Shown here in pieces: positions 37,001 to 64,000 of a stretch of 64,000 bases of DNA (within the stretch, counting starts at the first letter, position 1; every line of letters starts with the position of its first letter). Origin of the DNA: Elsinoe ampelina (lineage: Eukaryota); NCBI GenBank assembly GCA_010093995.1, contig ML992503.1, positions 180,984 to 244,983 of the forward strand, in the 5' to 3' direction. Made by a program: the position numbers and the translations under genes. The notes under the pieces were generated by a model. That model did no database searches, was not told where the DNA came from, and worked only from the letters and a program-made list of their open reading frames with translations.

Positions 37001-37244
37001 ACCTTCTTTAGTAAATCTATAAGCAAAGCCGAACGTAACTACGTAATCTATAACAAGGAGCTATTAGTAATCGTCTAAGCCTTTAAGGAATAGGCCTTTA
37101 AGCTTATAAGTACTTAATCCGATAAGGCTATTTACGTCCTTACTAACTACTAATCCTTAATACATTTTATAAAGACTTAGAAGCTATTACGCCGCTAAGC
37201 GCGCTAGGCTCTCTACCTTACGTAGTTTAACTTTAAAATTATAT

Positions 37245-43200: not shown

Positions 43201-44267
43201 AATTATTGCCGAATAGAGAACCCTAGTCGGAGTTAGGCATAAATAATCGCTAGTCCTATAGTAGAATAGGATCTACCGACGATAGTATTTCCTTCTACTT
43301 TAAGACTTAAATATAAGTCTCCTTTAAAGAGATTACTTCCTCTACCTTGTCCTCTAACTTTTATATCTCTTTACGTAGGTAAAGCTTATTACCTATAGCT
43401 CTTTAATAAGCCTCTTTTGCCTTTTTATAAGCTTCTTTAGCTTCCTTTCTAGTAGCCTTAGCTATAACTAATTCCTTTCGTAAACGAATATACTTAGACT
43501 AGAGACGCTACTATTCCGATTTTGTTATCTAAATATTATAACTAGAGTAGTTACTTACGACATACTAGCTATAGATACCCGACCGAATATAGACCTTATA
43601 GTCTAGCCCCTTCGATTTGCAACGAGAATAAGCCTATAGCATATTAGTTCTAAATAGTTTAATAAACTTCGAGAGATTCTTTTATATAGATATACTAGAT
43701 TTACTATGCCTTCGACAACTAGGAGGTATATTTAGTACATAGCGCGTAAAGATAGAAAAGAATACTTACTCGTTAGAATAACTTAATTAAAGAAGAAGAG
43801 TAATGTTATAAACTAGTAGGACAAGCTAGAGCGTAGAGACGTTAGGACTAATTAAACTACTAAGGTTATTACGTAACTTAGCCCGATATTTACCTAGTAC
43901 TCTATCTTCTCTAGTAGCTCTACCTTAGAGACTATAGAGTATATAGGTTACTAGCGGACGTGTACTTTATCTTCTCTAGTAGCTCTACTATAGAGTACGT
44001 AGAGCATATAAGGTATATAGTAAAGAACACATGTATATAGGAATAGTTCTTACCTTATGTAAGTACTATAGTTAACCTCGTCTAGATAGCGAACACTAGT
44101 ATTACTAAGGCTAGCCTTTATAATACTATCTAATTGTACTTTATTATCTATAAGATATACCTTCTTTAACTCTTACCTTAGTACTATACTACTATAGAAG
44201 TAGAACTACCTTGTTCTTAGCTTAGCTTAGACTACTAATGTAGGCTATGTTTAGACATTTCGTGACA
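37245..44267 (+). mobile_element. Gypsy C (Ty3/gypsy chromovirus, RIPed), full length 7,023 bp; 464-bp LTRs at 37245-37708 and 43804-44267; TSD TATAT
   Basis: LTR ends TGTTA(C)(G)AA...TTCGT(A/G)ACA. Removing the element restores the gypsy B frame FKIIYRP. Protease A(M)ID(S)GA near 39,940; RT VYLD(D)II near 40,915; chromodomain Y(E)IERIL...(W)K(G)Y...T(W)E(P)E near 42,955-43,060. Confidence 0.95.
43181..43729 (-). pseudogene. RIPed antisense accessory ORF in gypsy C (Cys6 Zn-binding-like motif plus coiled coil, ~183 codons)
   Basis: A single frame reads A(C)SRCKSKGLD(C)KV(H)IRSGI(C)(G)(Q)(C)...S(C)(D)I.ITKSE(W).RL...RLRKEL...ARKEAKEA. All internal stops are TAA/TAG, consistent with RIP. Confidence 0.7.
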
Positions 44268-47200
44268 TATATATAGGCCTAGCGCTACTAATAGCAAGGC
44301 CGACGCACTTATAAGGAGAAATAGAGACGTACTACGTTCGAAGGAAGACCCTAATCTACGCTAGACGCTATTACTATATAAAGTGCTAGATTAGCGTATT
44401 ATTAACGAACTAAATCTAGGTCGTATCTAAGCTAGATTATCGATCTAGGCTAAACTAAGATCTAGTTTAGCACCTATTTCGCTGCCTATTTCGGCTCGCG
44501 AGCTAGGCACCTATATAGCACCTATCTCCGCTATAGAAGAGCCTTTACTCCTTTTCGACAAAGTAGCTAAAGCTAACTTATAAGACTCTAACTTTAAGAC
44601 AGTTCGTAGCGTCTACTATATAATAGAAGCCTTTCTAAAGAGGAAATAGTTACTATCGACTAATATTATAATTAAGAAGGGGATACTATACGCTACTAGC
44701 TAATTAATCGTGCCTTTCTCTATAGCTGTAAAAGTCATCTAAGAAGTCTATATATTAAGGAATTACACACACGGAGGGGCTACTAAGATAGCTACTATAA
44801 TTAAGTCTACTTTCTATATCCCCGAGTACGATTCTAACGTTAAGAGGTTCGTCGCTAACTATTATAACTATAAGCGCTTAAAGGCTCGCTATAGCTTACT
44901 AGCTAGCCTTCTATCGCTATTACCTATTCCGGTTAGGCCCTAGTAATATATCACTATAGACTTCGTTACTAGCCTACCTCTAGTAGATAGCTATAACGTA
45001 GTACTATATGTTATTAATCGCTTATCTAAGGAACGACACTTAATCTCTTACTTCTAGGGAGAAGAAGGAACCTCTACATTTAAGATAGCTAAGCTATTAT
45101 TCTTCTATATATAGAAACTACATAGCCTACTAGATAGTATTACTTTAGATTATAGCCCTTAGTTCGTTAGCGACGTATAGAAGAGACTCTACTAAATCCT
45201 AAAGATTACTACTAAACTATCTACTATAGGGCATCTATAGATAGATAGCTAATTAGAGGTTATAAATCGTAAGTTTAAGTAAGTTATCTATTTATACGCT
45301 ACATGCTTTAGTAATTAGACCCTTATTCTACTAGTTACAAAGTTCTCCGCTAACGTTAACTTATTAGAGAGCACTAAGCTATCACTATTCGAGGTTACTA
45401 GAGGATATAAGCTAAGGCTAAGCTTCTAACTCTCTTCCGACGTACTATTAACAAGAGCTAAGCTAAATAAGATCGACATCTACGCACTTACTAAACAACT
45501 AAAAGAAGCGCTAGTTATTACTAAAGCTAACCTTGCTATTACCTAATCGCGTATAGTAGAACAAGCTAATAAGCACCGCTAGCTAATAGAGTTCGAGGTA
45601 AGCGATTTAGTATAGTTATTAACAAAGAACCTCCGGCTATATAGTAATCTAAAGCTACTACTAAAACATATTAGTCTATATAAGATCCTCGAGAAGTAGT
45701 TACCGTTAGTATATAAGCTAGATCTACTAGCTACGCTATAACGAATCTACTTTGTGTTTTACGCTAATCTACTTACTAAGTATCTAAATAACTCTCTACT
45801 AGGCTAAGCCTTTAAGGAACTACCTCCGATAGAAGTCGATAGTAAAGAGAAATACAAGGTAGACAACGTAGTTAATATACATATACTACGCGGTAAACTA
45901 GTTACTTATATAAGCTAGAAGAGCTATCCGGAGGATCTTACCTAGTGGCTAATTAACAATCTTAAAGGAGTAGCTAACGTGCTACGTAACTATCTAGACT
46001 CTTACACGGATAAGCTAAGGCTAAAATAGATTAATAAATAATGTATAATAGCGTTTAAGAGTAAACGCGCTTAAGAGAGGAAGTAGTAATACGAGATAGA
46101 TACGAACTAGATTTAGTTAGGATATAGTTTAGATTAGTTATGTAATCTTAGTATCGTAGTCTAGGCTTTCGGCTGCTTCGCCCTCGATATTACGCGTGCT
46201 TTATATACTAGCTTTTCTTCTTCTTCTTCTAAGTCTCGATATTTTAACAAATAGACATAATTAACCCCCTTGTCTTACTAGTCGTAATTAGCTAGTAATT
46301 AGTATAGTAAGGACATCTCGAGCGACTTTAGTAAGCTATAGAAAGTCTTTCTTGTTGTTCTTCTACTAATTAAGCACTTTAAATCCTAGTATACTCTAGA
46401 CTAGAAGGATATTAAGGTAGTTCTTACTCTTTTAATAAGTAGTTTAAGAACTCTCCTATTAATTCTAGATTACCAAGCTAATATTAGACTAGAAGCTAAA
46501 GCTTGTCTAGGGAGAGGTAAGCTATATAGGTAACTAAGGTTAATAGAACTAATTATCTTTATCTTTAAGTAGAGTTATAATACTTAGAGTCTTAGGTAGA
46601 CTATCTAGGAAAGGTAGTTTACTATTATAGCAACTAAGGTAGTTAAGAAATTACTTACGATACTTAGCCTTATTAGATTTCTCTTAGGTGTTATTCTATA
46701 ATATAATTAGCTTACTATAAGAATATATTTATAAGCTATAAACCTTATAGAGAGTTAGCTTTTACATAGGGTCTAAGACTATACTATAATTAAAGAGGTA
46801 CTCTCTCTTATTGTTAGTGTAATTATAGTACTTTAACAATTTATCTCGACTATACTCTACTATAAGTCTAACTACTTTAGACTAAGGCTTATTATTATCC
46901 CTCTCCTTGTCTATAGCGCTATTCTCTATCTTATTAAGGAAGTTAAATAGACAATTATACATTAACTAGATATATATAATTAGTAGGTAGCTAATAGTAC
47001 TTAACTAAGTAGTTACTACCTTAAAGTTCTTAAGTATCTTTATTACTAGCTTAAGGTGTAACTACTCTATACTATTAAGCTAAAGACGTTTAAGATCCTT
47101 ATAATCTAGATTACTAGTATTAGTGCTAACTAAGTTAGGTCCTATACTAGTAGAACTCTTTATCGTAATTTTCTATTTAAGCTATTTATCGATAAATAGT

Positions 47201-49134
47201 CTAAGCTTAAGACTATACTTATATATATTAAAGATTAAGTTCTACTATGTCTTAACGTCTTAAATAATAGCCTTACGCTCTCGAGGTATTAGAGCTTATT
47301 AAAGAGTTATAAACCTCTTAAAGCGTTAAGGTAATTAATTAATAGTAATATAAGTTATATAGAGCTAGGAATTAATTAGACTATAATTAAAAACTATAAT
47401 TAAAATACTAACTTTATAAAGTAAGTTTAGCACTAAAAGTTTAATAGAAATCTTTCTTAAGTACTGCCTTTTAAGCCTAGTAGCTTATTTATTCTCCTTA
47501 GTAGTCTTAAGGTCGAGGTACTTAATAATGTTCTATATAATAAGATTAATAATATATATAAGGCATAGAATAGTGTTTTCTTATATACTCTATATAATAC
47601 TTACTTACCTAAGAAGCCTTTATACTATCTTATATAATATATAGTTATTACTTATATTATTAGTAGTAATAGTAAGGAGTCTATCCTAGAGATTATAGTG
47701 CCGGAGTATCTATATAAGTTTAGTAGCTATATTATAGCCTATATATTAACTCTAAAGTAGTACTATATTTAATAATTGTTCCTAGAGCTACTATTAGGTA
47801 TTAATATAATAAGCTTTAATTATAATAAAGCCTAAATAATTGTTTATAGACTAGCTATTAAGGGCAATTAAGACCTTTATTGTCTTATTAAGATCTTATA
47901 ATAATATTTAATAGAGGTTTTTAAATTTGTTATTAAAGAGAGTAGCGAAGTAAGTATAGCTTAGTATAAATACTCCTAGGTATAGGAACTATATAAACTA
48001 TTAGAAGGATAGTTACTTAATAGTATAAAATAACTAATTATAGTCTACTACTATTCGAATAAGCTCTAAGTAGAATTAAGTAATTAAATATAAAAGAACA
48101 TTCTTCTAATTAATTACTAGACAACTTCGAAGCTATATAAGTACTTAGTCTACTAGATTATAGGCTAATTTCGTAACCTTAGTATAGGTCTTTATATCTC
48201 TATAATTGCTTATTACATTTATACCTTACTTTAATAGTAATAGGTAAGTAAGTATATTACTATACTATAAGTAGTAAATAAATAGACGTCTATTAGATAC
48301 TTATATAGCTTCTCTAAAGTGTGCCTATACTAATCTAGTTCTTAGTATTAAGTTCTAGTTTAGTAGGCTATACTCCTTAGAGAAGCTATAGCAAGATACC
48401 TATAGTGTTAAGTTCTACTACTATAGAAAGCTTTAAAGATCTACTTATTCCTTAGTAAGTATCGAAGGATTAAGCGTTAGACACTTAATAAGGTACCGTA
48501 GTATAGGCTAACTACCTCTATTATATTGTTATATAGTAAAGTAATAACTAGCTAGATCTTAGAGAATAGAGACTACTATAATTAGTAGAGTTAATAGAAA
48601 ATATAATTATAGATTAATTAGATTATTAAAATTCGCTATAGTAGAGTATAAAGGTTATATAACTTATATTATTAAATAGAAGTAGTATAGGTATTTATAA
48701 TAATACTATAACTTTTTAGCTAAATAAATTTAAAATGTTTAGATAAGTAATATATTTAAGTTTAGACTATTAGAAAGTCTTCTCTATAATTACTTTACGT
48801 AAGGCATTTAAAAACGCGCTAGTAGCTCTTAAGTAATTATAAATATTAATTACTAATAGAGTAGTTATAGAGTAGAGTAGAGTTAGGATTTTCTCTAGGT
48901 AACCTACCTCTACTCTAACTTACCTCTAGGCTTAGCTAACTCCCGCTAGAGTAGGTAGAGTTAGAGTTAGCTAAGCTAAGAGGTAGGTTAGGGTAGAGTT
49001 ATAAATTTTGTACTCTATAGGTTATTAGTAATACATAAAATAACAAAGTATAATTACTAATAATAGATTCTAATTACAAACTATATTCTCTAATACTACT
49101 ACTTATAGAATTATACTTTTAATCCCTATTATAT

Positions 49135-52100
49135 CTAGGCATTAGACATCTCCTTATTCTTAACCTTAGTAGTATTCTTATCCTCTATATTCTTATCCTT
49201 ATTCTTATTCTTATTATTATTATTACTATTAGTCTTAAGCTTAGAGTACTCTATAACCTTATTATTCTTATTCTTACTATCTAACTTATCTTTAACTTTT
49301 GTTAAGAATATAGCTCTCTCTAGATAGTTAGGCTAGGAAGTCACATAACCTATAGTTATATAATGCTAAGGCCTAGGGATTCATAAGCTGTTCTTTCTTC
49401 TAGTGGATAGACTCTTTAATTAATTAACTCGTCTATCACCTAACTAGTGTACGGATTAGTTCTATACAATACTTTACCCCTAAATGTGCCTTCTACTTAA
49501 TAGGTTATAAGCCCGGAGCTTATAGCACAAGTATAGAATTGTATATATAGCAGTTAGCCTACTACTTAAACAAAACAGAAGCGGAATTATAATATCCCTA
49601 CCGCCTTATAGTCAACTATCTAGATACCTTTAGTAAGCCTAGTAGACTGTACTATAAGTCGTAAAAGATTATACTACTTAGGACAACAAGCAGGAATAGT
49701 ACTTCTATTTAGTACAGGTTTAACTCCTGTAATTGTTCCACTATAGCTGCTGTTTATTAGCTAGATTAACTAAACATATTTAATTTATTAACTTTCTCTA
49801 AGGCCTAGCTAGCCTTATAGACAACTATTAACTAAAGGTTATTAACTGAACTTAACCTTTATCTATTTATTCGATTCTCTTCTCCTTAGAGAACTTAATT
49901 CCTAACTATAGAAGATTAGTCCTTATCTTTAAGAAGACTAGTTATTAAGCTTAATAGACTTAACTAGAGAGAATAGTTCTACTAGATAGAAATATACCTT
50001 ATAAGTAAGAATACCTTCTAGACTATTCATAGTTAGACTACCCCTTTAGTAACACTATTATCCAATAACACCTCTAGCTCCTTTTTAGTCCTACCTATTA
50101 AGTTAAAGGACTAGCAAAAGGCCAATGTAACTACTAAGTACTAGGTTGTCTAGTATATCTTATAAGATAACAAAGAGTTACTATATAAGGAAGAGCTTAC
50201 ATTAGAGTATTAGAGATTACTTAAGTCTAAGTACAAAACAAACCTTAAGGTAAGCGTAAGAGAGCTAGTTATCTAATTTATGAACTATAAGATAGATAAG
50301 CAGAATACTATTAATAAAGCTTAGTCCTACCTTACTAGCCTAGGAAGACAGATTACTATTGTCTACCTAGACAAGGGTTATTAGAGGGTAGTAGAGAGAT
50401 TATAGTAGCTTCTCTCTTCTCTTCCTAACGACTATAGGTTTACAAGGCAAGTAATTAAAGCAAGGGGATTAACTAACATAGATAAGGTCCTTCTTATTCT
50501 TAAGGAGGAAGAGAGACACCTTAGTAAGCATAAGATTGCTATGTTTACTAGGGGGAGACTAAATCAAGGACCTAGTAGAAGTATAAGCTACACATACATC
50601 CTCTGCTTATAGGCTAGTTATACTATAACTAGATGCCCTTAACTTTAAAGAGCATAGAGGCATGTTTAGCCTTCCTATAGGATTACTAAGAGCCTACTAA
50701 GGAGGAGAAGATCTCTATTAGCTTCTAATGATCTAATCACCCTTGTTAGGCATCTTACTAAGAAGGTTAATAGACTAGAAGCAGCATCTAAGTCAAAGAA
50801 AGGCAAAGCCTTTACTACTACTAAAGGCCGGTCCGAACCTTCCTCTCTAATCTTAACTCTACTACCTAAAGTTCTATCTAGTAAAGAGGAACTTAAGACT
50901 ACAGGCTCTATATTAGAGGTACAAGGTAAGCTTCTACATCATTAGTAGATGCTTAACTCTAGAGCATCTAACTATATAATAGACAAGCTAACTCTCTTTA
51001 GGGGCCTATTAAGCAAGATACATACTCGATAGATCTAGGTTAGGGGGGGTTACCTTTAGTTATAGTTAATAGAAACTGTAGTTATTAGGACTAAGAAGGG
51101 AGATAAGATAAAGGTATAAGCTCTTTATATACCTAATCTTAGTGTTAATTTAGTCTTCTATTGTAAGCTATGTACAGATTTAGGAGTTTCTAGAGTTCTT
51201 AATTCAAATTCTTTTCTTGTTCTTAATTTATAAAAGCAGCTACTACTTAAAGCTAGAATTCGAAGGGGGGTATATATTATCTAATCCCTCTTTAAGTAGT
51301 TAGCTAATCAAAAGCTATATTCTAGATCTAAGCCCGGCTTAATTCTAGATCTAGCTAATTAGGACATAGTATTCCTTGCTACTTAGCTAGTAATTATATT
51401 ACACACTAAGTATGCATATCTAACCTAGAATAAGTAATATAAGGATCTTATTGATTTAAGACCTAATAACTCTAACATAGAGTACTAACTCTAGCATAGG
51501 AGATTTGCTTACCTTAGAGTTAAGAAGCTTAGGGATCTTTATAAGGTTATAACCCTTAAGAAGCTTATTAATTTAAACTATAATTTGTTAATCCTATGTA
51601 AGGTCTATTCCTTAACAAAGATAAGGAATAGAAGAGGCAAAACTTTATAGAGAAGACTAGAGGTTCTTTAGCTTGTTTATACTAACATCTATAGCCTAAT
51701 TAAAGCAAGTAGGGAAGGATTTAGATACTTTCTAGAGCTTATAGATAGCTATTTAAGGATAACATAGATTATACTACTTAAGATAAGAGATAAAGCCCTA
51801 TAGAGGCTTATTAAGTAGAAGCTAAGGGTTAAGAAGGAAAGTAATGCCAAAGTCAAGGTCACTAGATTAGACAATGCTAGTAAGCTTAACAAGATCCTAA
51901 AGTAGTAGGAGCGCTAAGAAGGCATCTATTATATAACTACTAAGCTATATAATTTAATCTAGAATAGACTAGTAGAGAAAGGCATCTAAACCTTAGAGAA
52001 TGGCATAAGAGCAATGCTTAAGGACTTAAAGATGCTAAATAAGTTCTAGCCTAAAGCAGTTTAGGTAGATACATATCTAAGGAACAGGACAGTAACTAGA

Positions 52101-55100
52101 CCTATGATTAATAATAAGCAAGTTACACTAATTAAGGCCTATATAGGCATTAAGCTATTAGTTAATTACATTAGAGTCTAGAGCTACAAGGTATATACCT
52201 ATATAAACCTAAAGTCCCTTCCTATACATAGAAGAAAAGATAAGCTTATAGATAGAGGGAGAGTAGGAGTATTTCTTAGCTATATAGATAGAACTAATAG
52301 AATGTACAAGATATAGGCACCTAACAGGAAGGCAGTAATTATATTACTAAATGTTAAGTTCTCTAAATTTAAGAAAGGTAGGAATGTTAATCTTAGTATT
52401 AAGATTAGCACTACGAGCAATTAAGCACTAGTTAGGAGACTAATTAGTAGACTAACCTAGATCCGAGCCTAGCTTAATCCTAAGGTAGACTAATTAGATT
52501 AGCCTATTTAGTAAGAAGCGCCTATAGAGAGAATCTTCTTATATATTAAGATCCTAAGGGTTAACTCTATTAACCTTGTAGAATTCTAACGTAGAGAAGA
52601 GCTAATAGTTCAATCTATATTACCTAATTATACAGGTTAATCACTTAAGAGATTAAGAGATAAAGAATCTAATAATAAAGAGCCTAAGGTAAAGCATTAT
52701 AGAGCATTTATTGCTAAGTGTATTAATTAGTAAGATAAGGTTAATAAGATTACTATAATAGCCTCTGTTAAGTAATATGTCCTAATTCCAAGAGACTACT
52801 ATAAGGCTGTTACTAATCTAGTTTAGGAAAGCAAGTAGCAGAAAGCAATTAATATAGAGCTTAATACTCTAGGATTAAATAACACATAGGAAGAGGTTGT
52901 CCCTCTAAAAGGATTAAACTTAGTAACATCTAAGTAAGTCTTTAATGTTAAGTATAACATAGATAGCTCTATTAAGAAGTTTAAGGCTAGACTTATTACT
53001 AGAGGCTTCTTATAGAAGTATAGTATTAACTATAAAGACACATTTACACTAACAGTTAGAGTAGATACACTAAGACTGTTCTTTGCTATCGTGTATATAC
53101 TTGACCTTAAATGTCATTAGGTAGATGTTAATAATGCCTTTATAGAATTATTCCTTAGGGAAGTGATTTACATAAGGCTACTACCTAGACTTAAGGTCTA
53201 ACCTAGTATTGCCTTCTATATTCTTAGGAGCTTATATAGACTTAAGTAAGCTACTAGAGATTAGAATTAGCACTATATCTCTAAGCTTTTAAAGTTAGGC
53301 TTTACTTAGAGCAAAGTAGACCCTTGTCTTCTTATGCACTATAATAAGAAGATTATTCTCTTGGTTTATGTTAATAATATACCATTTGTAGCATAAAGCA
53401 AAGAGAACATCTAGTAGTTTAAGTAAGAGCTTAGTAAAATCTTTAAGATTAAGAATCTTAGTAAGGTTAGTAAAGTTCTTAGGGTTAAGGTCACAAGGGA
53501 CAGACAATAAGGAACTTTAAGGCTTAACTAGACCTACTATATAGATGATGTGTTATAGAGGCTTAATATGACCTCTAACAAGGCTACTCTAACAAAGCAG
53601 CTAATAGACAATAAGCTCCCTTAGAGAGCTTAGACTAAAGATATAAGGTTTAGTAGAACTAAGTACTTACATACTATTAGAAGCTAGATGTACCTTAGTA
53701 CCCTAATAAGACTAGACACTGCCTTTGCCTTAGGAAGGCTTAGTTAGTTTATAGCAGATCTAATAGACAGCTATACTATTAAGATAAAGAGGATATTAAG
53801 ATATATTAGATTAACTAAAGATCTTAGTATAGTGTTTAGAAGGAATAGTAATAAGACTCTTAAGGAATATTCTAATTTAGATTATACCTTAGATAAGACA
53901 GACAGAGTCTCTATTCTTAGATATGTCTTTATACTTACAGGTGGTCCTATTAGCTAGATAAGTAGGAAGTAGAAGTCTGTTTCAATCTCTACTATAGAGG
54001 CTAAATATATAGTAATATACTCTTATATAAAGAGATTACAGTTCCTATCTTAGTTACTAAGAGATATAGGCTGTTATAAGATAGTTAGTTAGTCACCTTA
54101 GAAACTAACTATAAAGGAGTCTTAGAAAGCAATAATAAGATTACCCTTTACTACTAAGATTAATAGTAATAATTAAGTAGCTCTTTTACTTGTAAAGGAG
54201 CTATATACTTATAAAAGGGCAAAGCACATTAATATTGCTTACTACTACCTTAGGAGGCTATAGAGAGACTAGAGGATATAGGTTAAGTTTGTAAGGATAG
54301 TAGACATAGTTACTAATAGATTAACTAAGCTGTTACAAGGCTAGAACTTTATAAGATTTATAAAGCAACTTAGCTTGTCATTAATCTAATAGCTCACCTA
54401 TAGGAGCTAAGTAGGAGTGTTAAGAATATAGCTCTCTCTAGATAGTTAGGCTAGAAAGTTACATGACCTATAGTTATATAATGCTAAGGCCTAGGGATTT
54501 ATAAGCTATTCTTTCTTCTAGTAGATAGACTCTTTAATTAATTAACTTGTCTATCACCTAACTAGTGTACGGATTAGTTCCATACAATACTCTACCCCTA
54601 AACGTGCCTTCTACTTAACAACTTTAACACCTAGATAATAATCCTTATTACTACTAGCTTCCTTATCTAATATTCTTTTAATCTTATTTTTATCCTTCTT
54701 AACCTTCTTCTTATACTTATTATTATTATCTCCTTTATAGTATAGTCTAGTACTATAGAGTTTAAGCTTAGAGATGTATTTATACTTAGGAGATAGAGGA
54801 ACGACTAGCCTGTATAATTGTTAGAATATACTATAATTAAAGACTATAATAAACTTACTACTAGTTAGGATTCTATAACACTACTAATTCTATAGGAGGG
54901 AGCTCTTTAAGCTACTTAAAAAAAATCTTATATGTCTACTTATTGTTAGTGTTATTAGTAATAAGGCTTATATAGCTATCCTAGTAAATTTTATACTATA
55001 GCTTCTCGATAATACTACTAGTACTATAGATATATATATAGGCTTATATTAGCTATTGTTTACCTTACTAATTTACTACTATATTATCTTAGATACGCTT

Positions 55101-55729
55101 AATAATCTTATTATACTCTTGCTTTTGTAGAGTCTTTCTAATACTAGTCTATTTCTTATAGGTCTATATAAATATAAATTTAAGTTACTCGCCTATAACG
55201 ATTAGTACTGCTATAATAGTATACTATAATAATAGACTTACTACTCCTCTATTTATTAAAGTGTTTCTCCTCTATATCTTTAATAGTATTATTAATTCTA
55301 ATATTCTACTCTTTAGTAGAGAGCTAATCCTACCTATTCTCTTTCTTAATCTTATTACGTAAAGTACTAATAGCTTTATAATCTACTACTTAAGTAGTAT
55401 AGAGGGCTTACTTCTTATATATACGCTAAGAAGTACAATCTCTCTACTTAATAGTATAAGCACTTTAACTTAGAGGTCTAGAGTGTCTAGCGATAAATCT
55501 AGTCTTATAGCTCCTTCTAGTTTAACTAGCGCTATACTAAGAGATCTAGTATTTAATTTCCTACTACTTAGAATTAAACCCCTAGTATTATTAGTAACTA
55601 TATATAATAAGAAACTATAATTAATACTTCTAATAATTCTCTTAGAATATTCTCCCTAGAGTCTTCTTCTTACTTAATTACTACCTACTCTTTCTACTCT
55701 ATCTTAATGTCTTCTATAGGTATAGACAT
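49135..55729 (-). pseudogene. RIPed multi-intron cargo gene of hAT-2 with a long Asp/Glu-rich C-terminus; split by copia D
   Basis: ATG at 55729. GTAAGT...CTAAT/CTAAC...AG introns near 55240-55195 and 54860-54810. The frame continues across the copia D TSD into AAT/AAG/GAT runs (RIPed GAT/GAG) and ends EMS(D)A* at 49135. Confidence 0.62.
49300..54620 (+). mobile_element. Copia D (Ty1/copia, RIPed), full length 5,321 bp; 203-bp LTRs at 49300-49502 and 54418-54620; TSD ACTTT
   Basis: Matching LTRs TGTTAAG...CTTAACA and TSD. PBS-like GGTTATAAGCCC; protease (W)ML(D)S(G)AS near 50,950; L(W)HRRFA(H)L near 51,490; RT RSLY(G)LK(Q)A and LLVYV(DD)I near 53,230-53,400. Confidence 0.95.
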
Positions 55730-56070
55730 TTAATTAAAGGTAATAAAAAGAGTATTTATAGTATATAAATTGTATATAAGGTAAGTAAAAGAGGTAAAGG
55801 TATAAAGGGAAAGTTAGAGTTAGAAATTTATAATTTATAAATGTATAAAATAATAAAAGAGAAGGCTAGGGTAAAGAATAAGAAAGCTATTGTTATATAA
55901 GTTATTTACTATTATCTTATTATTCTCTATTATTAATAGTAAATAGTACATCTAATAATAGGTTTTATATTTCTTACTCTAGCCTCTCCTTTTTACTATT
56001 TTATATATACTAAAATTTTACATACGAACTTTAACTTCTTAGCTATATATAAACAACCTCTTACTTTACT

Positions 56071-56597
56071 ATAGCATGCAAAAAAGGTTATCCTTAAGCT
56101 ACTACTAGTCCTAGAGAAAGAGGTTATAAAGAGAAGTAACCTACTATAAAGAAGACGCTATAATTCTAGACTAAGCCTAGAAAGAAGTAGAGATTTAAGC
56201 CCGGCAGTATTTATTACAGTTTCTAATTATAGAGCAGAACTAATAGAAGGTAGCTATCGCTCTCTATAAGATTTGTTACTACTAGAAGAATGTTTAATTA
56301 TTATTCCGTAAACTTCCCTTTTCTTGCCTTATCTATAAGATATTCTAAGATATATAGCTTACTCTTAAGGTCGATCGCTAGACAGCTAATATACTTAGAG
56401 CTCTCTAAGAATTAGTAGAGGCATTTATTATTAGATATATAGAAGGTATATACCTATTAAATATGTGTTAAAACCTTAATTAACACCTATTTATAGATAT
56501 AAACCTTAATGCTATCTATACTAAGTATATTACTATTAATTATAAGGACTCTAGCTTTACTAAGCGCTACTATTAGAAGTTTATAGTTAGTAGTTAG
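56071..56597 (+). pseudogene. RIP-inactivated histone H3 variant gene inside hAT-2; exons 56071-56206, 56254-56445 and 56497 to ~56597 (end uncertain)
   Basis: Literal spliced translation is RFKPG/TIALYKICYY*KNV*LLFRKLPFSCLIYKIF*D...R*TANILRAL*ELVEAFIIRYIE/DINLNAIYTKYITINYKD. Reversing only C>T and G>A changes gives RFKPGTVALREIR.YQK...RKLPFSRLVREI.QD...ALQE.AEAF...EDTNL.AIHAKR.TI..KD. Two GT-AG introns of 47 and 51 nt. Confidence 0.9.
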
Positions 56598-56999
56598 TTA
56601 AGGATTAGAGTTTTAGGTAGTAGCTTATACTAGAGAAATAGTATAGGTAGAGTAATAAATTTCTTTACTATAATAATATAATATAATAATACCTTAATTC
56701 TTCCTTAATATTAGTAATTAATGTTTATAATTACTTAGAGGCTACTAGCGTATTTTTAAATGCCTTATATAAAGTAATTATAGAGAAGACTTTCTAATAG
56801 TCTTAACTTAAATATATTACTTATCTAAACATTTTAAATTTGTTTAGCTAAAAAATTGTAGTATTATTATAAACACCTATACTACTTCTATTTAATAATA
56901 TAAGTTATATAACCTCTATACTCTACTATAGCAGATTCTAATAATCTAATCGATCTATAATTATATCTTCTATTAACTCTACTAATTATAGTAGTCTCT

Positions 57000-59610
57000 G
57001 TCCCCTAAGATCTAGCTAGTTATTGCTTTACTATATAACAACGTAATAGAGGTAGTTAGCCTATACTATAGTACCTTATTAAGTGTCTAACGCTTAATCC
57101 TTCGATACTTACTAAGGAATAAGTAGATCTTTAAAGCTTTCTATAGTAGTAGAACTTAACACTATAGGTATCTTGCTATAGCTTCTCTAAGGAGTATAGC
57201 CTACTAAACTAGAACTTAACACTAAGAACTAGATTAGTATAGGCATACTTTAGAGAAGCTATATAGGTATCTAATAGATGTTTATTTATTTACTACTTAT
57301 AGTATAGTAATATACTTACTTACCTATCGCTATTAAAGTAAGGTATAAATATAATAAGCAATTATAGAGATATAAAGACCTATACTAAGGTTACAAAATC
57401 GGTCTATAATCTAGTAGACTAAGTACTTATATAGCTTCGAAGTTGTCTAGTAATTAATTAAAAGAATATTCCTTTATATTTAATTACTTAATTCTACTTA
57501 GAGCTTGTTTAAATAGTAGTAGACTATAATTAGTTATTTTATTCTATCGAGCGACTATCCTTTTAATAGTTTATATAGTTCCTATACCTAGGAGTATTTA
57601 TACTAAGCTATACTTACTTCGCTACTCTCTTTAATAACGAATTTAAAAACCTCTATTAAACGTTATTATAAGATCTTAATAAGACAATAAAGGTCTTAAT
57701 TACTCTTAATAGCTAGTCTATAAATAATTATTTAAGCTTTATTATAATTAAAGCCCATTACATTAATAACTAATAGTAGCTCTAGAAACAATTATTAGAT
57801 ATAGTACTACTTCGGGGTTAATATATAAGCTATAATATAGCTACTAAACTCGTACGGACACTCCGGTACTATAATCTCTAGGATAGACTCCTTACTATTA
57901 CTACTAATAATACAAGTAACAACTATATATTACGTAAGATAGTATAAAGACTTCTTAGGTAGGTAAGTATTATATAGAGTATATAAGAAAATACTATTCT
58001 ATACCTTATATATATTATTAATCTTGTTATATAGGACATTATTAAGTACCTCGACCTTAAGACTACTAAGGAGAATAAATAAGCTACTAGGCTTAAAAGG
58101 CAGTACTTAAGAAAGATCTCTACTAAACTTTTAGTACTAAACTTGCTTTATAAGGTTAGTATTTTAATTATAGTTTTTAATTATAGTCTAATTAATTCCT
58201 AGCTCTATGTAACTTATATTACTATTAATTAATTACCTTAACGCTTTAAGAGGTTTATAACTCTTTAATAAGCTCTAATACCTCGAGAGCGTAAGGCTAT
58301 TATTTAAGACGTTAAGACATAGTAGAACTTAATCTTTAATATATATAAGTATAGTCTTAAGCTTAGACTATTTATCGATAAATAGCTTAAATAGAAGATT
58401 ATAATAAAGAGTTCTACTAGTATAAGACCTAACTTAGTTAGCACTAATACTAGTAATCTAGATTATAAGGATCTTAAACATCTTTAGCTTAATAGTATAG
58501 AGTAGTTATACCTTAAGCTAGTAATAAAGATACTTAAGAACTTTAAGGTAGTAACTACTTAGTTAAGTACTATTAGCTGCCTACTAATTATATATATCTA
58601 GTTAATGTATAATTATCTATTTAACTTCCTCGATAAGATAGAGAATAGCGCTATAGACAAGGAGAGGAATAATAATAAGCCTTAGCCTAAAGTAGTTAGA
58701 CTTATAGCAGAGTATAGTCGAGATAAATTGTTAAAGTACTATAATTATACTAACAATAAGAGAGAGTACCTCTTTAATTATAGTATAGTCTTAGACTCTA
58801 TATAAAAGCTAACTCCCTACGAGGTTTATAGCTTATAAATATATTCTTATAGTAAGCTAATTATATTATAGAATAATACCTAGGAGAAATCTAATAAGGC
58901 TAAGTATCGTAAGTAATTTCTTAACTACCTTAGTTGCTATAATAGTAAACTACCTTCCCTAGATAGTCTACCTAAGACCCTAAGTATTATAACTCTACTT
59001 AAAGATAAAGATAATTAGTTCTATTGACCTTAGTTACTTATATAGCTTACCTCTCCCTAGACAAGCTTTAGCTTCTAGTCTAACGTTAGCTTAGTAATCT
59101 AGGATTAATAAGAGAGTTCTTAAACTACTTATTAGAAGAGTAAGAACTACCTTAATATTCTTCTAGTCCGGAGTATACTAGGATTTAAAGTACTTAATTA
59201 GTAGAAGAATAACGAGAAAGACTTTCTATAGCTTACTAAAGTCGCTCGAGATGTCCTTACTATACTAATTACTAGCGTTAGTATCGAATGTATATTTAAT
59301 ATAGTAAAGAACATTATTAGTAATTAAAGACACTAACTCTCTATATAAACAATCTAGTAGCTTATAATTATAAAGCTTACAACTAGACTATCTCTATTAA
59401 GTAGTAATCCTATCGATAGTAGCTATATAGATAAGGCACTAGATAAGGTAGATAACTTATTTAACTTACCTACTTAAGAGAGTATATTTAATATAAGTAA
59501 CTACGAGAAAGATAGTAATAATAACAACTATAAGTCTCTAGTAAAGCGTATAAGATTATCTAGAAGAACATAGAATAACATTAAAATACAACGATTAAAC
59601 GTATAGAATA
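57000..59610 (+). pseudogene. RIPed hAT transposase (BED finger, DDE core, hAT dimerisation domain); ends approximate
   Basis: V(W)AYF...Y(C)L(Q)(C) BED finger near 57,235-57,310; DRLL(A)IT(AD)N(A)SN near 57,885; I(P)(C)L(AH)IINL near 57,995; (D)VKT(RW)N(S) near 58,310; F(PQ)L(A)KVARDVL...(V)E(RV)FN near 59,225-59,300. Confidence 0.9.
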
Positions 59611-59672
59611 CTATAATTAGAAACTATAATTAGTGCTATTTCTATCCTAAATAGATTGCAAATTATATATAT

Positions 59673-62600
59673 TGTTAAGCAGAAGGCACGTTTAGGGGTG
59701 GAATATTGTATAGAACTAATCGTACACTAGTTAGGTAATAGACGAGTTAATTAATTTAAAGGAGTCTATCTACTAGAAGAAAGAACAGCTATAAATCCCT
59801 AGGCCTTAGTATTATATAACTTAAAGTTATATAACTTTATAGCCTAATTATCTAGAGAGGGCTATATTCTTAACACTCCTACTTAGCTCCTATAGATAAG
59901 CTATTAGGTTAATAATAAGCTAAGTTACTTTATAAACCTTGTAAAGATCTAACCTTGTAATAGCTTAGTTAACCTATTAGCTACTATGTCTACTGTCCTT
60001 ACAAACTCTACTTAAATCCTCTAGTCCCTCTATAGCCTCCTAATATAGTAGTAAGCGACATTAATATACTTTGCCCTTTTATAAGTGTATAGCTCTTTTA
60101 TAAGTGAAAGAGCTACTTAGTTATTACTATTAATCCTAGTAGTAAAGGGTAATCTTATTATTGCTTTCTAAAATTCCTTTATAGTTAGCCTCTATAGTAA
60201 TTGCCTAACTATCTTATAACAGCCTATGTCTCTTAGTAACTAAGACAGGAACTGTAATCTCTTTATATAAGAGTATATTACTATGTATTTAGCCCCTATA
60301 GTAGAGGTTAAAACAGACTTCTACTTCCTACTTATCTAGCTAATAGAACTACCTACAAGTATAAAGACATATCTAAGGATAGAGACTCTATCTAACTTGT
60401 CTAAGGCATAGTCTAAATTAGAGTATCCCTTAAGGGTCTTATTTCTATTCCTTCTAAATATAATACTAAGATCTTTAGTTAATCTAATAGATCTTAACAT
60501 CTTCTTTATCTTAATAGTATAACTGTCTATTAGATCTGCTATGAACTAACTTAGCCTTCCTAAGGCAAAGGCAGTATCTAGCCTTGTTAGAGTGCTAAGG
60601 TATATCTAGCTTCTAATAGTATATAAGTACTTAGTTCTACTAAACCTTATATTATCTTCCTAAGCTCTTTAAGGGAGTTTATTATCTATTAGCTGCTTTA
60701 TTAGAGTAACCTTGTTAGAGGTTATATTAAGCCTCTATAGCATATTATCTACATAGTAGGTTTAATTAAGTCTTAAGGTGCTTTATTATCTGTCCCTTAT
60801 AACCTTAACCCTAAGAACTTTATTAACCTTACTAAGATCTTTAATCTTAAAGATCTTACTAAGTTCTTGCTTAAACTACTAGATATTCTTCTTGCTTTAT
60901 GCTGTAAATAGTATATTATTAATATAAACTAAGAGAATAATTCTCTTATTATAGTATATAAGAAGATAAGGGTCTACTTTGCTCTAAGTAAAGCCTAGCT
61001 TTAGGAGCTTAGAGATATAGTGCTAGTTCTAGTCTCTAGTAGCTTACTTAAGTCTATATAAGCTCCTTAGAATCCGGAAGGCAAATCTAGGACTAACCTT
61101 TAGTCTAGGTAGTAGCCTTATATAAATCCTTTTATAAAGAAAGAACTCTATAAAGGCGTTATTAATATCTACCTAGTAACACTTAAGGTTATATATACAA
61201 ACAATAGCAAAGAACAGCCTAAGTATGTCTACTCTAACTATTAGTATAAATATGTCTTCGTAGTTAATACTATACTTCTATAAGAAGCCTCTAGTAACTA
61301 GTCTAGCCTTAAACTTTTTAATAGAGCTATCTATATTGTACTTAACATTAAAGACCTATTTAGATGTTACTAAGTTAGATCCCTTTAGAGGAATAACCTT
61401 TTCCTATGTATTGTTTAAGTATAGAGTATTAAGCTCTATATTAATTGCTTTCTACTATTTACTTCCCTATACTAGATTAGTAATAGCCTTATAGTAGTCC
61501 CTTAGGATTAAGACATATTGCTTAATAGAGGCTATTATAGCAATCTTATTAACCTTATCTTGCTAATTAATGCACTTAGCAATAAAAGCTCTATAGTGCT
61601 TAGCTTTAGGGCCTTTATTATTAGAGTTATTATCTCTTAATCTCTTAAGTAATTAACTTATATAGTTAGTTAGTAAAGATTAAACTATTAGCTTTTCTCT
61701 ACGTTAGAAATCTACAAGGTTAATAGAGTTAACCCTTAGGATTTTAATATATAAGAAGATTCTCCCTATAGGTGCTTTATTCTAAATAGGCTAATTTAGT
61801 TAGTCTATCCTAGATCTAACCTTAGTTTGAATCTAAGTTAGTCTACTAACTAGTCTCCTAACTAGTGCTTAATTGCTTATAGTATTAATCCTAATACTAA
61901 GATTAATATTACTACCTTTCTTAAACTTAGAGAATTTAACATTTAGTAATACAATTACTATCTTTCTATTAGGTGCCTATATCTTGTATATCCTATTAGA
62001 TCTATCTATATAGCTAAGGAATACTCCTACTCTTCCTCTGTCTATAAGCTTGTCTTTTCTTCTATATATAGAAAGGGACTTTAGGTTTATATAGGTGTAT
62101 ACCTTATAGCTCTAGACCCTAATATAATTAACTAATAGCTTAATGCCTGTATAGGCCTTAATAGGTGTAACTTGCTTATTATTAATTATAGGTCCAGTTA
62201 CTGTCCTGTTCCTTAGATATGCATCTACCTAAACTGCTTTAGGCTAGAACTTATTTAGCATCTTTAAGTCCTTAAGTATTGCTCTTATACTATTCTTTAA
62301 GGTTTAGATACCTTTCTCTACTAGTCTATTCTAAATTGAATTATATAGCTTAGTAGTTATATAATAGATGCCTTCTTAGCGCTCTTACTACTTTAGGATC
62401 TTATTAAGTTTACTAGCATTGTCTAATCTAGTAACCTTAACCTTAGTATTACTCTCCTTCTTAACCCTTAGCTTCTACTTAATAAGCCTTTATAGGGCTT
62501 TATCTCTTGTCTTAAGTGGTATAATCTATATTATCCTTAAGTAGCTATCTATAAGCTTAAGGAAGTATCTAAATCCTTCCCTACTTACTTTAATAGGACT

Positions 62601-64000
62601 ATAGATATCTATATAGATAAGCTAAAGAACCTTAAGTCTTCTTTGTAAGGTTTTGCCTCTTCTATTCCTTATCTTTATAAGGGAATAAACCTTATATAGA
62701 ACAGATAGATTATAGTTTAGGTTAATAGGTTTCTTAAGAGTTATAACTTTATAAAGATCCCTAAGCTTCTTAATCCTAAGGTAAGTAAATCTCCTATACT
62801 AGAGCTAATACTCTATCTTAGAGTTATTAGGTCCTAAGTTAATAAGATTCTCTTATTACTTATCCTAGGTTAGATATACATACTTAGTCTATAATATAAT
62901 TATAGGCTAGGTAGTAAGGAATACTAAATCCTAATTAGCTAGATCTAGAATTAAGCTAGGCTTAGATCTAGAATGTAGCTTTTAATTAGCTAATTACTTA
63001 AAGAGGGATTAGATAATATATACCTCCCCTCGAATTCTAGCTTTAAGTAGTAGTTACTTCTACTAATTAAGGACAAGAAAAGAATTTAAATTAAGAACTC
63101 TAGAAACGCCTAAATCTACGCATAGGTTACAATAGGAGACTAAATTAATACTAAGATTAGGTATATAAAGAGCTTATATCTTTATCTTATCTCCCTTCTT
63201 AGTCTTAATAATTGTAGTTTCTATTAACTATAACTAAAGGTAACTCTCCCTAACCTAGATCTATTAAGTGCGAATCTTGCTTAATAGGCCCCTAAAGAGA
63301 GTTAGCTTGTCTATTATATAGTTAGATGCTCTAGAGTTAAGTATCTACTAATAATATAGAAGCTTACCTTAAACCTCTAATGTAAAACCTATAGTTTTAA
63401 GCTCTTTATCCCTAGATAGAACTTCTAGTAGTAGAGATAGAGATGTTAATAATAAACCTCTCTTAGTAGCTAGATAGGCTTTGCCTCTCCTTCTTGATTT
63501 AGCTACTTTAAGAGAGTCTATTCTCTTAGTAAGCTATCTTATAAGTTTAAGTAGTTCCTAGCGCTTAGGTAACTATCTCCTTATAGAGCTACTCCTTTTA
63601 GTAACTCTATAGGATAGCTAGATATACTTCTTAGCTTATTAGAGATAAGGACACCTTAACATAGAGTGTCTAGGTTCCTTATATAAGATATATATATAGT
63701 TTAAGCTCCTACTAGTTCCCTATTATAGTCTACCTCTTATAAACATAGTAGATTCCCCTTCTCCCTTCTATACTTTCTTTTCTTTAAGAATGTTATAGAT
63801 CTTATCTATACTAAGGTGTAGTTAAGCATCTAAGGTATCTCTTATAGTTAACTATAAAGCTAGAAGAGCACTAAGTAGTCTCTAAATTCTTGTTATTAGT
63901 AAGGAGTATTACTTAATCTTTAAAGATCTATTAATTCTCCTTCCTAACATAGTTAGGTATAACTAGGTATCTAAGATAGTTATATTATTACCTATAGTAT
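59673..64000 (-). mobile_element. Copia E (copia D family, opposite orientation, RIPed); 3' LTR at 59673-59875; 5' end outside the window
   Basis: The LTR and pol are reverse-complement homologues of copia D. Similarity falls off in gag beyond about 63,450. Confidence 0.92.

Follow-up and report, generated by a model that had tools for sequence, protein, structure and literature searches.

The 64-kb window, by which we mean the whole stretch of DNA analysed here, very probably contains a fossil copy of a hAT-superfamily transposon, estimated at about 5.7 kb, whose cargo, an entire gene for a histone H3 variant, sits between the left end and the transposase. The initial annotation had proposed a three-exon H3-like frame lying between a hAT terminus and a hAT transposase and disabled by RIP, and the terminus, the gene model and the hAT dimerisation domain (PF05699) agree in supporting that description. 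The association of hAT elements with H3-like genes is itself already published, in two reports (Manning 2013, G3, PMC3538342; Dhillon 2019, Mob DNA, PMC6710886). New here are a Dothideomycete host nearest Myriangiales, the retention of introns and the CenH3-like mosaic character of the histone.

A histone H3 homologue in a RIP-damaged frame

The gene model is summarised below.

56071-56576, plus strand: H3-like gene, three exons, 135 codons, two clean phase-1 introns
56071-56206, plus strand: exon 1, basic N-terminal tail up to RFKPG
56207-56253, plus strand: intron 1, 47 nt, GT...ACTAAT...TAG, phase 1
56254-56445, plus strand: exon 2, alpha-N through alpha-2, loop 1 as in H3 plus three residues
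56446-56496, plus strand: intron 2, 51 nt, GT...TTAAC...TAG, phase 1, splitting G/AT (Asp)
56497-56576, plus strand: exon 3, begins DINLNAIYTKYITINYKD, TAG stop at 56574-56576

A single spliced frame holds all four of the H3 motif groups that had been noticed by eye, namely RFKPGTIAL, RKLPF, AL*ELVEAF and EDINLNAIYTKYITINYKD. Of the span originally assigned to the gene, the start at 56071 stands, but the end at 56597 lies 21 nt past the TAG stop. The 3' splice site of intron 1 (TAG at 56251-56253) was recognised via a matching protein, P0026, and excision of the intron joins GGC A/CT ATC to read G-T-I in the H3 register. The two introns fall at codons 46 and 106. Intron 1 is spanned without gaps by a 236-nt contig from another copy of the family, while in one of the organisms sampled (organism B) the interior of intron 2 is replaced in an indel-type manner and the exons still align, with loose contig ends at 56472 and 56491. 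Since the gene keeps its introns, two of phase 1 with lengths of 47 and 51 nt, simple retroposition is disfavoured, as had been argued at the outset.

The frame is a real histone H3 homologue. Against a home-made local profile built from 21 canonical H3 and 25 fungal CenH3 sequences, the frame scored 80.1 bits (E 1e-23) when spliced, as against 45.5 bits without splicing, while not one of the remaining 1278 six-frame pieces from the window exceeded 6 bits. Exon 2 alone, with stops entered as X, hit 171 different sequences in PDB at E<=1 by phmmer; among the 60 of these 171 that were listed, all were histone H3 or H3/CENP-A chimeras, with a best E of 7.2e-6. The Pfam Histone model (PF00125) gave 15 bits on exon 2 alone (E 0.029), under its cut-off of 26.4 bits, and neither exon 1 nor exon 3, each searched alone, matched a Pfam family. 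A word-index search with exon 2 returned one candidate and no scored match, because RIP leaves too few exact words. If C>T/G>A changes alone are allowed, 64 of the 92 histone-fold positions in the alignment can be reconciled with canonical H3, versus a mean of 16.7 and a maximum of 27 in 500 shuffled controls.

No intact open reading frame is left. The 135 codons contain 11 internal TAA/TAG stops, and the start codon is today ATA, which RIP makes from ATG. All 11 stops are RIP-derivable from Q, R or W codons, in agreement with the original attribution of the stops to RIP. The accompanying statement that most departures from the H3 motifs have the same cause proved too strong: RIP explains 27 of 55 departures from canonical H3, or about half. 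Dinucleotide ratios of the H3-like segment were 1.75 for TpA/ApT and 0.33 for (CpA+TpG)/(ApC+GpT), and the corresponding values in the gene-rich half of the window were 0.54 and 1.29. For genome annotation, the case shows that ORF callers can miss an entire three-exon gene when RIP has acted on it.

Architecture and copy number of the hAT element

Two hAT copies, A and B, and two retrotransposons inserted in copy A, Xa and Xb, make up the surrounding region.

48858-48873, plus strand: copy A left terminal motif (TIR) AGAGTAGTTATAGAGT, 16 nt, starting at most 1 nt from the A/B homology break
48873-48917, unstranded: copy A left-end subterminal repeats, TAGAGTAGAGTTAGG type, after the terminal motif
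48858-49299, plus strand: copy A left arm, part 1, contiguous with 54626 in other genomic copies
49300-54620, unstranded: Xa, LTR retrotransposon inserted in copy A and foreign to the hAT, LTRs at about 49300-49502 and about 54418-54620
54626-56070, unstranded: copy A left arm, part 2, no recognisable domain
56710-59672, plus strand: copy A hAT transposase region, a single frame (55002+3n) full of RIP stops
59181-59375, plus strand: hAT dimerisation domain PF05699, C-terminal, 33.3 and 35.2 bits (cut-off 21.4)
59673-63748, unstranded: Xb, second, inverted Xa-type retrotransposon, inserted in the right part of copy A
46291-48857, minus strand: copy B main body, corresponding to A 56710-59276, cut at 48857/48858 by A's left end
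32462-33086, minus strand: 3' portion of copy B including its right terminus, with 33086-32682 equivalent to A 59268-59672 and the terminal motif at 32462-32477

The transposase lies downstream of the H3-like gene on the same strand. Its read-through frames yielded neither a DDE/RNase-H core nor a BED zinc finger in Pfam searches, both of which RIP damage may hide, and the 845-residue read-through had no match in PDB. Copy B is 95% identical to copy A over 2568 nt of the transposase region, with a truncated PF05699 (18.7 bits). Transitions make up 125 of 128 differences between the copies; for the 3' portion the count is 24 of 24.

The exact 16-nt terminal motif occurs in the window only at 48858(+) and 32462(+). 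The two sites stand in inverted relation, as they should if a plus-strand copy has its left end at one and a minus-strand copy its right end at the other, and they provide the short TIRs of a hAT element, though the ends belong to two copies (A's left at 48858, B's right at 32462). With at most two mismatches, 0.32 occurrences of the motif are expected and three were reached in 0 of 100 shuffles. A third site, carrying two mismatches, lies at 35101-35116. Partly similar AT-rich sequence precedes the motif at both exact sites and at 35101-35116, so the true terminus could be displaced outward by a few bases. Repeats of the TAGAGTAGAGTTAGG type are confined to the two ends, with all five window matches at <=2 mismatches falling within 32493-32571 or 48873-48917 (0.72 expected; five reached in 0 of 100 shuffles). 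The 8-mers adjoining the two termini, TTACTAAT and TTATAGAT, each one side of a putative 8-bp target duplication, would fit the hAT target preference nTnnnnAn; each copy's partner end lies outside the window, A's on the right and B's on the left, and thus neither copy shows both termini.

Between the left terminus and the H3-like gene sits Xa, whose LTR ends read TGTTAAG...CTTAACA and which is flanked by a perfect 5-bp target duplication (ACTTT at 49295-49299 and 54621-54625). In sequencing run X2 (one of the four introduced below), four contigs have a loose end at 54629 that reads like 49273-49299, two transitions apart. These contigs join 49299 straight to 54626, which indicates that other copies are contiguous without Xa. 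With Xa taken out, the H3-like gene has the left terminus (48858) on one side and the transposase (56710-59672) on the other. Xb displaces copy A's right end out of the window; 50539-54621 of Xa matches 63748-59672 of Xb at 86.6% over 4.1 kb. This 4.1-kb inverted repeat was also considered as a pair of giant TIRs and rejected, its arms being two LTR-retrotransposon copies, one with its own 5-bp target duplication. Nested insertions of this kind can push the real end of a transposon away by over 5 kb.

The left arm, 1.9 kb long, matched no Pfam family in 12 read-through frames, an Orf78 hit at E 0.078 being taken as noise. A K/N-rich stop-free run on its minus strand extends from 54820 to 54626 and resumes at 49299-49138; at 119 codons it is the longest in the AT-rich half of the window, with the runner-up at 91 codons and the 99th percentile at 43. 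An imperfect palindrome at 55811-56037 lies directly upstream of the H3-like start.

Copy number of the family was assessed with contigs of four public runs from two organisms, aligned to the window stretch at >=80% likeness. Numbers of matched contigs were 1091, 935, 3505 and 2067 per run. The whole 54626-59672 stretch, H3 part included, was covered in 30 of 30 bins in all four runs; depth differences between bins were not taken as copy numbers. Since all bins are covered in both organisms, the H3-bearing segment is a multi-copy family. Several contigs fall on H3-like positions, for example 9 (X1) and 12 (X2) at 56459 and 20 (X3) at 56546, and the 236-nt contig mentioned above, from another copy, aligns on 56193-56428 with 26 differences and no gaps. 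Among the contigs listed, which measure at most 428 nt, none links the H3-like gene to the transposase.

These data bear on whether the histone gene is cargo at all. It might instead be a decayed host paralogue, or a piece of some other repeat, that happens to adjoin the hAT in a RIP-degraded transposon graveyard. The region is indeed a mosaic of nested insertions, the H3-like gene is visible in only one of the two hAT copies, homology between B and A begins at 56710, 134 nt past the H3-like stop, and the window offers no second H3-like/hAT junction. A RIP-tolerant local alignment of A's upstream sequence against B's upstream and far regions gave low-complexity matches only. However, the left terminal motif and subterminal repeats are found further out, at 48858, and the A/B homology break coincides with A's terminus, just as an insertion of A into B would produce. 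The multi-copy state of 54626-59672, H3-like part included, in 4/4 runs and the same association in published precedents also speak against a chance neighbour, and we regard this alternative as very improbable. As cargo, the histone gene would have been amplified alongside the element as it moved by cut-and-paste, a case of transduplication (cf. Manning 2013; Dhillon 2019). The amplified repeats would then have been struck by RIP, destroying both transposase and histone gene, and the two LTR retrotransposons would have inserted in copy A later.

Nature and origin of the histone

Judged by its residues, the histone is no plain copy of canonical H3 but a mosaic variant in which some features resemble CenH3. 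Hallmarks of CenH3 are a longer loop 1, Trp at the F84 site of H3, loss of Q68, EAF for EAY and a non-canonical basic tail. Of these, the present frame has the longer loop and the tail in common with fungal CenH3 (Cse4/cse-4/hH3v) and may share the other three. Its loop 1 has three extra residues, opposite a gap in all 21 canonical sequences. Position 88, the F84 site, is a TAG that RIP can derive from TGG and not from a Phe codon, the Trp there being deduced and not observed. Position 69, replacing Q68, is Ser; the Phe at position 103 (EAF) has no RIP route from Tyr; and the N-terminal tail, while basic, does not align with ARTKQTARKS.

Each of these five traits counts against the capture, at the DNA level, of a host canonical H3 gene with its introns, which later diverged and was scrambled by RIP. 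The canonical consensus is nevertheless compatible at 63 of 91 positions, the S91 and G106 columns fit canonical H3 only, and the 135 codons equal the length of H3. A host H3 was also inferred as the source in Mycosphaerellaceae (Dhillon 2019, PMC6710886). A further point against this origin is that the H3 of Pseudocercospora fijiensis apparently has no intron near codon 106. Taken together, capture from canonical H3 strikes us as doubtful.

A cargo that stems from, or groups with, either centromeric H3 itself (CenH3/hH3v/Cse4) or some variant lineage resembling it would account for the longer loop, the Trp deduced at position 88, the Phe at 103 and the Ser in place of Q68. The best single-domain matches of the H3-like protein among 1.84 billion representatives were P0021 and P0022, and the relatives of P0021 are overwhelmingly fungal CSE4/hH3v. 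The nearest Atlas cluster of P0026 is 'CSE4' at 0.92, which serves as a lead only. Intron positions point the same way. P0026 reads through an intron at the intron 1 site, and read-through at the intron 2 site is found in P0021, P0022, P0024, P0025 and P0026; P0036 also shows same-site read-through. These unannotated environmental H3 variants form a group with introns at the same sites as the hAT-borne gene. On the other hand, overall RIP compatibility is no better with CenH3 (66/94) than with the canonical consensus (63/91), and the histone does not appear to be closer to CenH3 as a whole. The discriminating columns are split, with two CenH3-only, two canonical-only (S91 and G106 above), three fitting neither and one fitting both. 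CenH3 is also a fast-evolving protein, and RIP makes every T and A ambiguous. Unlike fungal CenH3 genes, moreover, the present one lies inside a transposon and is multi-copy. We therefore hold a centromeric origin only tentatively, as a possibility short of probable.

The contig of P0026, 15.6 kb long, was not among 78 metagenome H3 loci, a scan dominated by canonical H3 genes at 43-46% identity. With 69 of these loci having a single full-length intronless match and 8 having multiple matches, they are mostly intronless and consequently provide no fungal intron map. A literature search for fungal H3 intron positions turned up H4 work only.

Comparison with published elements and possible role

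The first known system is the hAT-borne H3-like (H3L) gene of Pyrenophora tritici-repentis (Ptr), to which the initial annotation had correctly pointed (Manning 2013, PMC3538342). As described there, the Ptr element is likewise a hAT with a dimerisation domain and an H3-like gene between its TIRs, it measures 5.6 kb as compared with the 5.7 kb or so estimated here, it is multi-copy as is the present one, and a figure legend mentions introns in ESTs. The Ptr copies, however, are nearly identical, intact and transcribed, whereas the present copy is RIP-destroyed. A 'central ORF' between the genes is also reported for Ptr, and gene order may differ from that of the present element. The tail of Ptr H3L is said to be canonical-like, in contrast to the unalignable tail found here, although the elements were compared by description only.

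The second system comprises the hAT-borne H3-like copies of P. fijiensis and five other Mycosphaerellaceae, hundreds of them RIP-inactivated (Dhillon 2019, PMC6710886). A hAT likewise amplified an H3-like sequence there, all copies are RIP-inactivated with a CpA>TpA bias, they occur only in AT-rich blocks as in the present case, and both elements have short TIRs, of 18-20 bp in P. fijiensis. That element, however, is larger (9.5 kb) and holds one or two H3-like copies, and DUF659 is reported for it with no dimer_Tnp_hAT found, whereas the present element has PF05699. Its cargo is intronless and was read as a captured transcript, while the gene described here has two introns; this comparison too is by description only. 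The present host, nearest Myriangiales, falls outside the 21 genomes of that study, and a third Dothideomycete lineage thus joins the two with known hAT-borne H3. The retained introns and the partly centromeric look make the one-off capture of a housekeeping transcript less convincing. Whether the pairing of hAT and H3 reflects recurrent capture or an old partnership becomes a question testable with whole genomes.

Copy A is today a fossil with no present function. The proposal of a 'transposon-encoded chromatin module', being a claim about function, is not supported by a copy with 11 stops, a lost start codon and an element broken by two retrotransposon insertions. That the histone once had a role for the element, as opposed to being a passive passenger, is conceivable, with the balance tilted against it. 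We consider it improbable that the gene is a dedicated element gene of a separate H3 variant lineage, marked by conserved introns and by traits recalling CenH3 (a long loop 1, Trp84, no Gln68, a non-canonical tail), which would travel with hATs across Dothideomycetes, would be found un-RIPped in the contigs behind P0026, P0036 and P0021 and would not stem from serial accidental captures of host H3. Were this so, a living histone would form nucleosomes of a special kind at the element or in its surroundings, and these could shield the element from H3K9/K27-based silencing or steer it toward centromeric or heterochromatic DNA.

Plant Pack-MULEs and similar elements, cited in Manning 2013 (PMC3538342), likewise hold host-type genes between DNA-transposon ends and multiply them along with the element. 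Their cargo consists mostly of gene fragments and chimeras, in contrast to the whole, intron-bearing, full-length gene found here, and the present carrier is a hAT and not Mutator-like.

A degraded histone H3-like gene with two introns

The window divides into a gene-rich half (1–28 kb, GC ~0.52) and an AT-rich half (28.5–64 kb, GC 0.25–0.39), and the latter bears the signature of repeat-induced point mutation (RIP). TpA/ApT reaches 1.92 in the AT-rich half and 1.75 in the H3-like segment versus 0.54 in the gene-rich half; the corresponding values of (CpA+TpG)/(ApC+GpT) are 0.26, 0.33 and 1.29. The initial annotation had described this segment as a three-exon histone H3 variant gene, carried by a hAT transposon and hidden by RIP. 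Exon boundaries were resolved with P0026, a public protein found by similarity search, as guide:

56071–56206, plus strand: exon 1
56254–56445, plus strand: exon 2
56497–56576, plus strand: exon 3

Both introns (47 nt and 51 nt) are in phase 1, start with GT, contain a CTAAC-like branch site (ACTAAT and TTAAC, respectively) and end with TAG. The spliced frame spans 135 codons, opens with ATA, a RIP product of ATG, and is interrupted by 11 internal TAA/TAG stops. Every H3 motif listed in the initial annotation was found in this frame, and the attribution of the stops to RIP held for 11/11, each being reachable by C>T/G>A from a codon for Q, R or W. The further claim that RIP explains most departures from H3 was too strong: the frame is identical to canonical H3 at 37 of 92 positions and RIP-compatible at 64/92 (500 shuffles: mean 16.7, maximum 27), a compatibility that accounts for roughly half of the 55 departures.

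With its stops read as X, exon 2 by itself matched 171 sequences in PDB; among the 60 matches listed, all were H3 or H3/CENP-A chimeras (best E 7.2e-6). The Pfam Histone model gave 15 bits on this exon, under its cut-off of 26.4. With a local profile built from 21 canonical H3 and 25 fungal CenH3 sequences, the spliced frame scored 80.1 bits versus 45.5 bits unspliced, and none of the other 1278 six-frame pieces of the window exceeded 6 bits. The observation itself is confirmed. Its reading as a "transposon-encoded chromatin module" is partly right: the hAT element does carry a cargo gene, but a role in chromatin would be hypothetical, and the present copy is dead.

Two hAT copies and their insertions

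A degraded transposase lies 3' of the H3-like gene, on the same strand and in a single reading frame (55002+3n). It retains a hAT dimerisation domain at 59181–59375 (33.3 and 35.2 bits, cut-off 21.4); neither further transposase domains in Pfam nor relatives in PDB were detected for this frame. The gene and the transposase belong to copy A, which is accompanied by a second copy, B, and by several insertions:

46291–48857, inverted: main body of hAT copy B
32682–33086: continuation of copy B
33087–46290: 13.2-kb insertion splitting copy B
49300–54620: LTR retrotransposon Xa, with LTRs of 203 bp (TGTTAAG...CTTAACA); its 5-bp target duplication, ACTTT, is perfect
59673 to at least 63748, opposite orientation to Xa: LTR retrotransposon Xb

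Copy B is 95% identical to copy A over 2568 nt, with transitions making up 125 of the 128 differences. A third hAT copy was ruled out, because the fragment at 32682–33086 continues copy B across the insertion, which is flanked by a 9-bp duplication of hAT sequence, GCTAGTAAT. The insertion has direct terminal repeats of ~200 bp that are 90% alike and lack TG...CA ends, which together with the 9-bp duplication is an unusual combination for an LTR element. The insertion is in turn a mosaic and contains direct repeats at 37252–37709 and 43811–44268.

The segment 54622–59671 is flanked by a 4.1-kb inverted repeat. We rejected these arms as giant TIRs, as they are the two retrotransposons, 86.6% identical over 4.1 kb and both inserted in copy A. 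Homology between copies A and B ends at 59672 because Xb is inserted there. In X2, one of the public sequencing runs analyzed, the loose ends of 4 contigs at 54629 resemble window positions 49273–49299, two transitions apart, and Xa is therefore private to copy A. With Xa taken out, copy A extends left to 48858.

The motif AGAGTAGTTATAGAGT at 48858 starts at most 1 nt from the point where copy B sequence stops. This 16-nt motif has one other exact occurrence in the window, at the distal end of copy B (32462), where it is oriented as the other terminus of an inverted copy should be; allowing up to 2 mismatches, 0.32 matches are expected by chance. Repeats of TAGAGTAGAGTTAGG come after the motif at both ends, where 5/5 window matches to the repeat are found. 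A third match to the terminal motif, AGAGCAGTTATAGAGG (35101–35116, minus strand, 2 mismatches), is less RIP-affected and has partly similar sequence on either side. It lacks the subterminal repeats, and may mark the terminus of a related element or have arisen by chance. On the simplest interpretation, copy A inserted itself into copy B and the H3-like gene is internal to A, at 2.3–2.8 kb from the left terminus of A and with 134 nt separating it from the B-shared region downstream. The full element would measure ~5.7 kb, adding 220 nt of B past 59672, with its two ends taken from different copies.

Some minor features were observed around the gene. A 27-nt stretch inside intron 1 (56206–56232) is 85% like a motif of the hAT subterminal regions recurring at 32717, 49053 and 58160 (repeat family D9), a likeness that may simply reflect RIP-driven low complexity. 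Immediately upstream of the start codon lies an imperfect palindrome (55811–56037; arms of ~110 nt, 71–75% complementary), which may be what is left of a bidirectional promoter, or else a small foldback insertion. Once Xa is removed, the left arm contains a K/N-rich run of 119 stop-free codons on the minus strand (54820–54626 joined to 49299–49138); no other stop-free run in the AT-rich half is as long (second longest 91; 99th percentile 43). RIP acting on an acidic E/D tract would give such a run, which matched no Pfam family. One possibility is a decayed second cargo gene, transcribed away from the H3-like gene on the other side of the palindrome; a by-product of purine-rich composition is equally possible.

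Relatives of the H3-like gene and published precedents

When exon 2 was searched with HMMER against 1.84 billion representatives, 20 proteins matched at E<=0.001. Proteins matched over two or three stretches are tandem canonical H3 models, and the best single-stretch matches include P0021 and P0022, with a long loop 1 and KLPF(A/S)RL. Among 782 candidate relatives of P0021, 764 fell at E<=1e-5, mostly fungal proteins named CSE4, cse-4 or hH3v by their sources; a smaller group comprises environmental contigs together with Scytalidium and Xylogone, with models running through unspliced introns. Read-through occurs after RFKPG(S) and after FE(S) in P0026 and P0036, and after FE(G/S) in P0021, P0022, P0024 and P0025, sites that match the two introns of the window in position and phase. 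These six deposited proteins consequently contain junk insertions, one or two short introns having been translated. Sharing IPKLPF, KDMQLV and the long loop 1, this group from environmental contigs appears to form a lineage of H3 variants of its own.

Discriminating columns point both ways. Two fit CenH3 only (a TAG at 88, derivable from Trp but not from Phe, and Phe at 103), two can be reconciled with canonical H3 alone (Ser is compatible at position 91 and Gly at position 106), three agree with neither (among them Gln 68, here Ser) and one fits both. Loop 1 exceeds that of 21/21 canonical sequences by 3 residues, and the N-terminal tail is basic without aligning to the canonical tail. A long loop 1, Trp in place of Phe, the Phe of EAF, loss of Gln 68 and a non-canonical tail are hallmarks of CenH3. 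Overall compatibility is 63/91 for canonical H3 and 66/94 for CenH3. We conclude that the gene is a mosaic H3 variant, whose origin one RIP-damaged copy cannot settle.

H3-like cargo in hAT elements is already known. In Pyrenophora tritici-repentis, a hAT element occurring in two forms of 5.6 and 2.3 kb carries an intact, transcribed H3-like gene, with 26 copies (Manning et al. 2013, PMC3538342). In Pseudocercospora fijiensis, 784 RIP-inactivated H3-like copies belong to a hAT family of 9.5 kb, with similar events in five other Mycosphaerellaceae (Dhillon et al. 2019, PMC6710886). The P. fijiensis cargo is described there as intronless, in contrast to the two introns found here, and that paper contains 0 occurrences of the words centromere or CenH3. 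A full-text literature search returned no further report of hAT-borne H3 and no CenH3-like transposon histone in fungi. The new details are the lineage (a Dothideomycete nearest Myriangiales), the retained introns and the CenH3-like mosaic.

Other copies in public sequencing runs

Four runs from two coded organisms were aligned to 54626–59672 at >=80% likeness, yielding 1091, 935, 3505 and 2067 matching contigs. All 30 bins of the segment were covered in 4/4 runs, with depth over bins not equated with copy number. Contig differences were mostly transitions (437 versus 91 transversions in run X1). A 236-nt contig from another copy, aligned on 56193–56428, spans intron 1 with 26 differences and 0 gaps. 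Among the contigs listed, each of at most 428 nt, none bridged the H3-like gene and the transposase. The contigs of organism B still align over the exons, but inside intron 2 they carry slightly different sequence in place of that of the window (loose ends at 56472 and 56491), a behaviour fitting an intron.

The host was placed as a Dothideomycete nearest Myriangiales by means of an open reading frame in the gene-rich half, for a TauD/TfdA-type dioxygenase (PF02668; 17499–19325, minus strand). Its nearest named relatives are from Elsinoe fawcettii (58%), Sphaceloma murrayae (47%) and Myriangium duriaei (47%), with ~42–43% to Cercospora and Aureobasidium.
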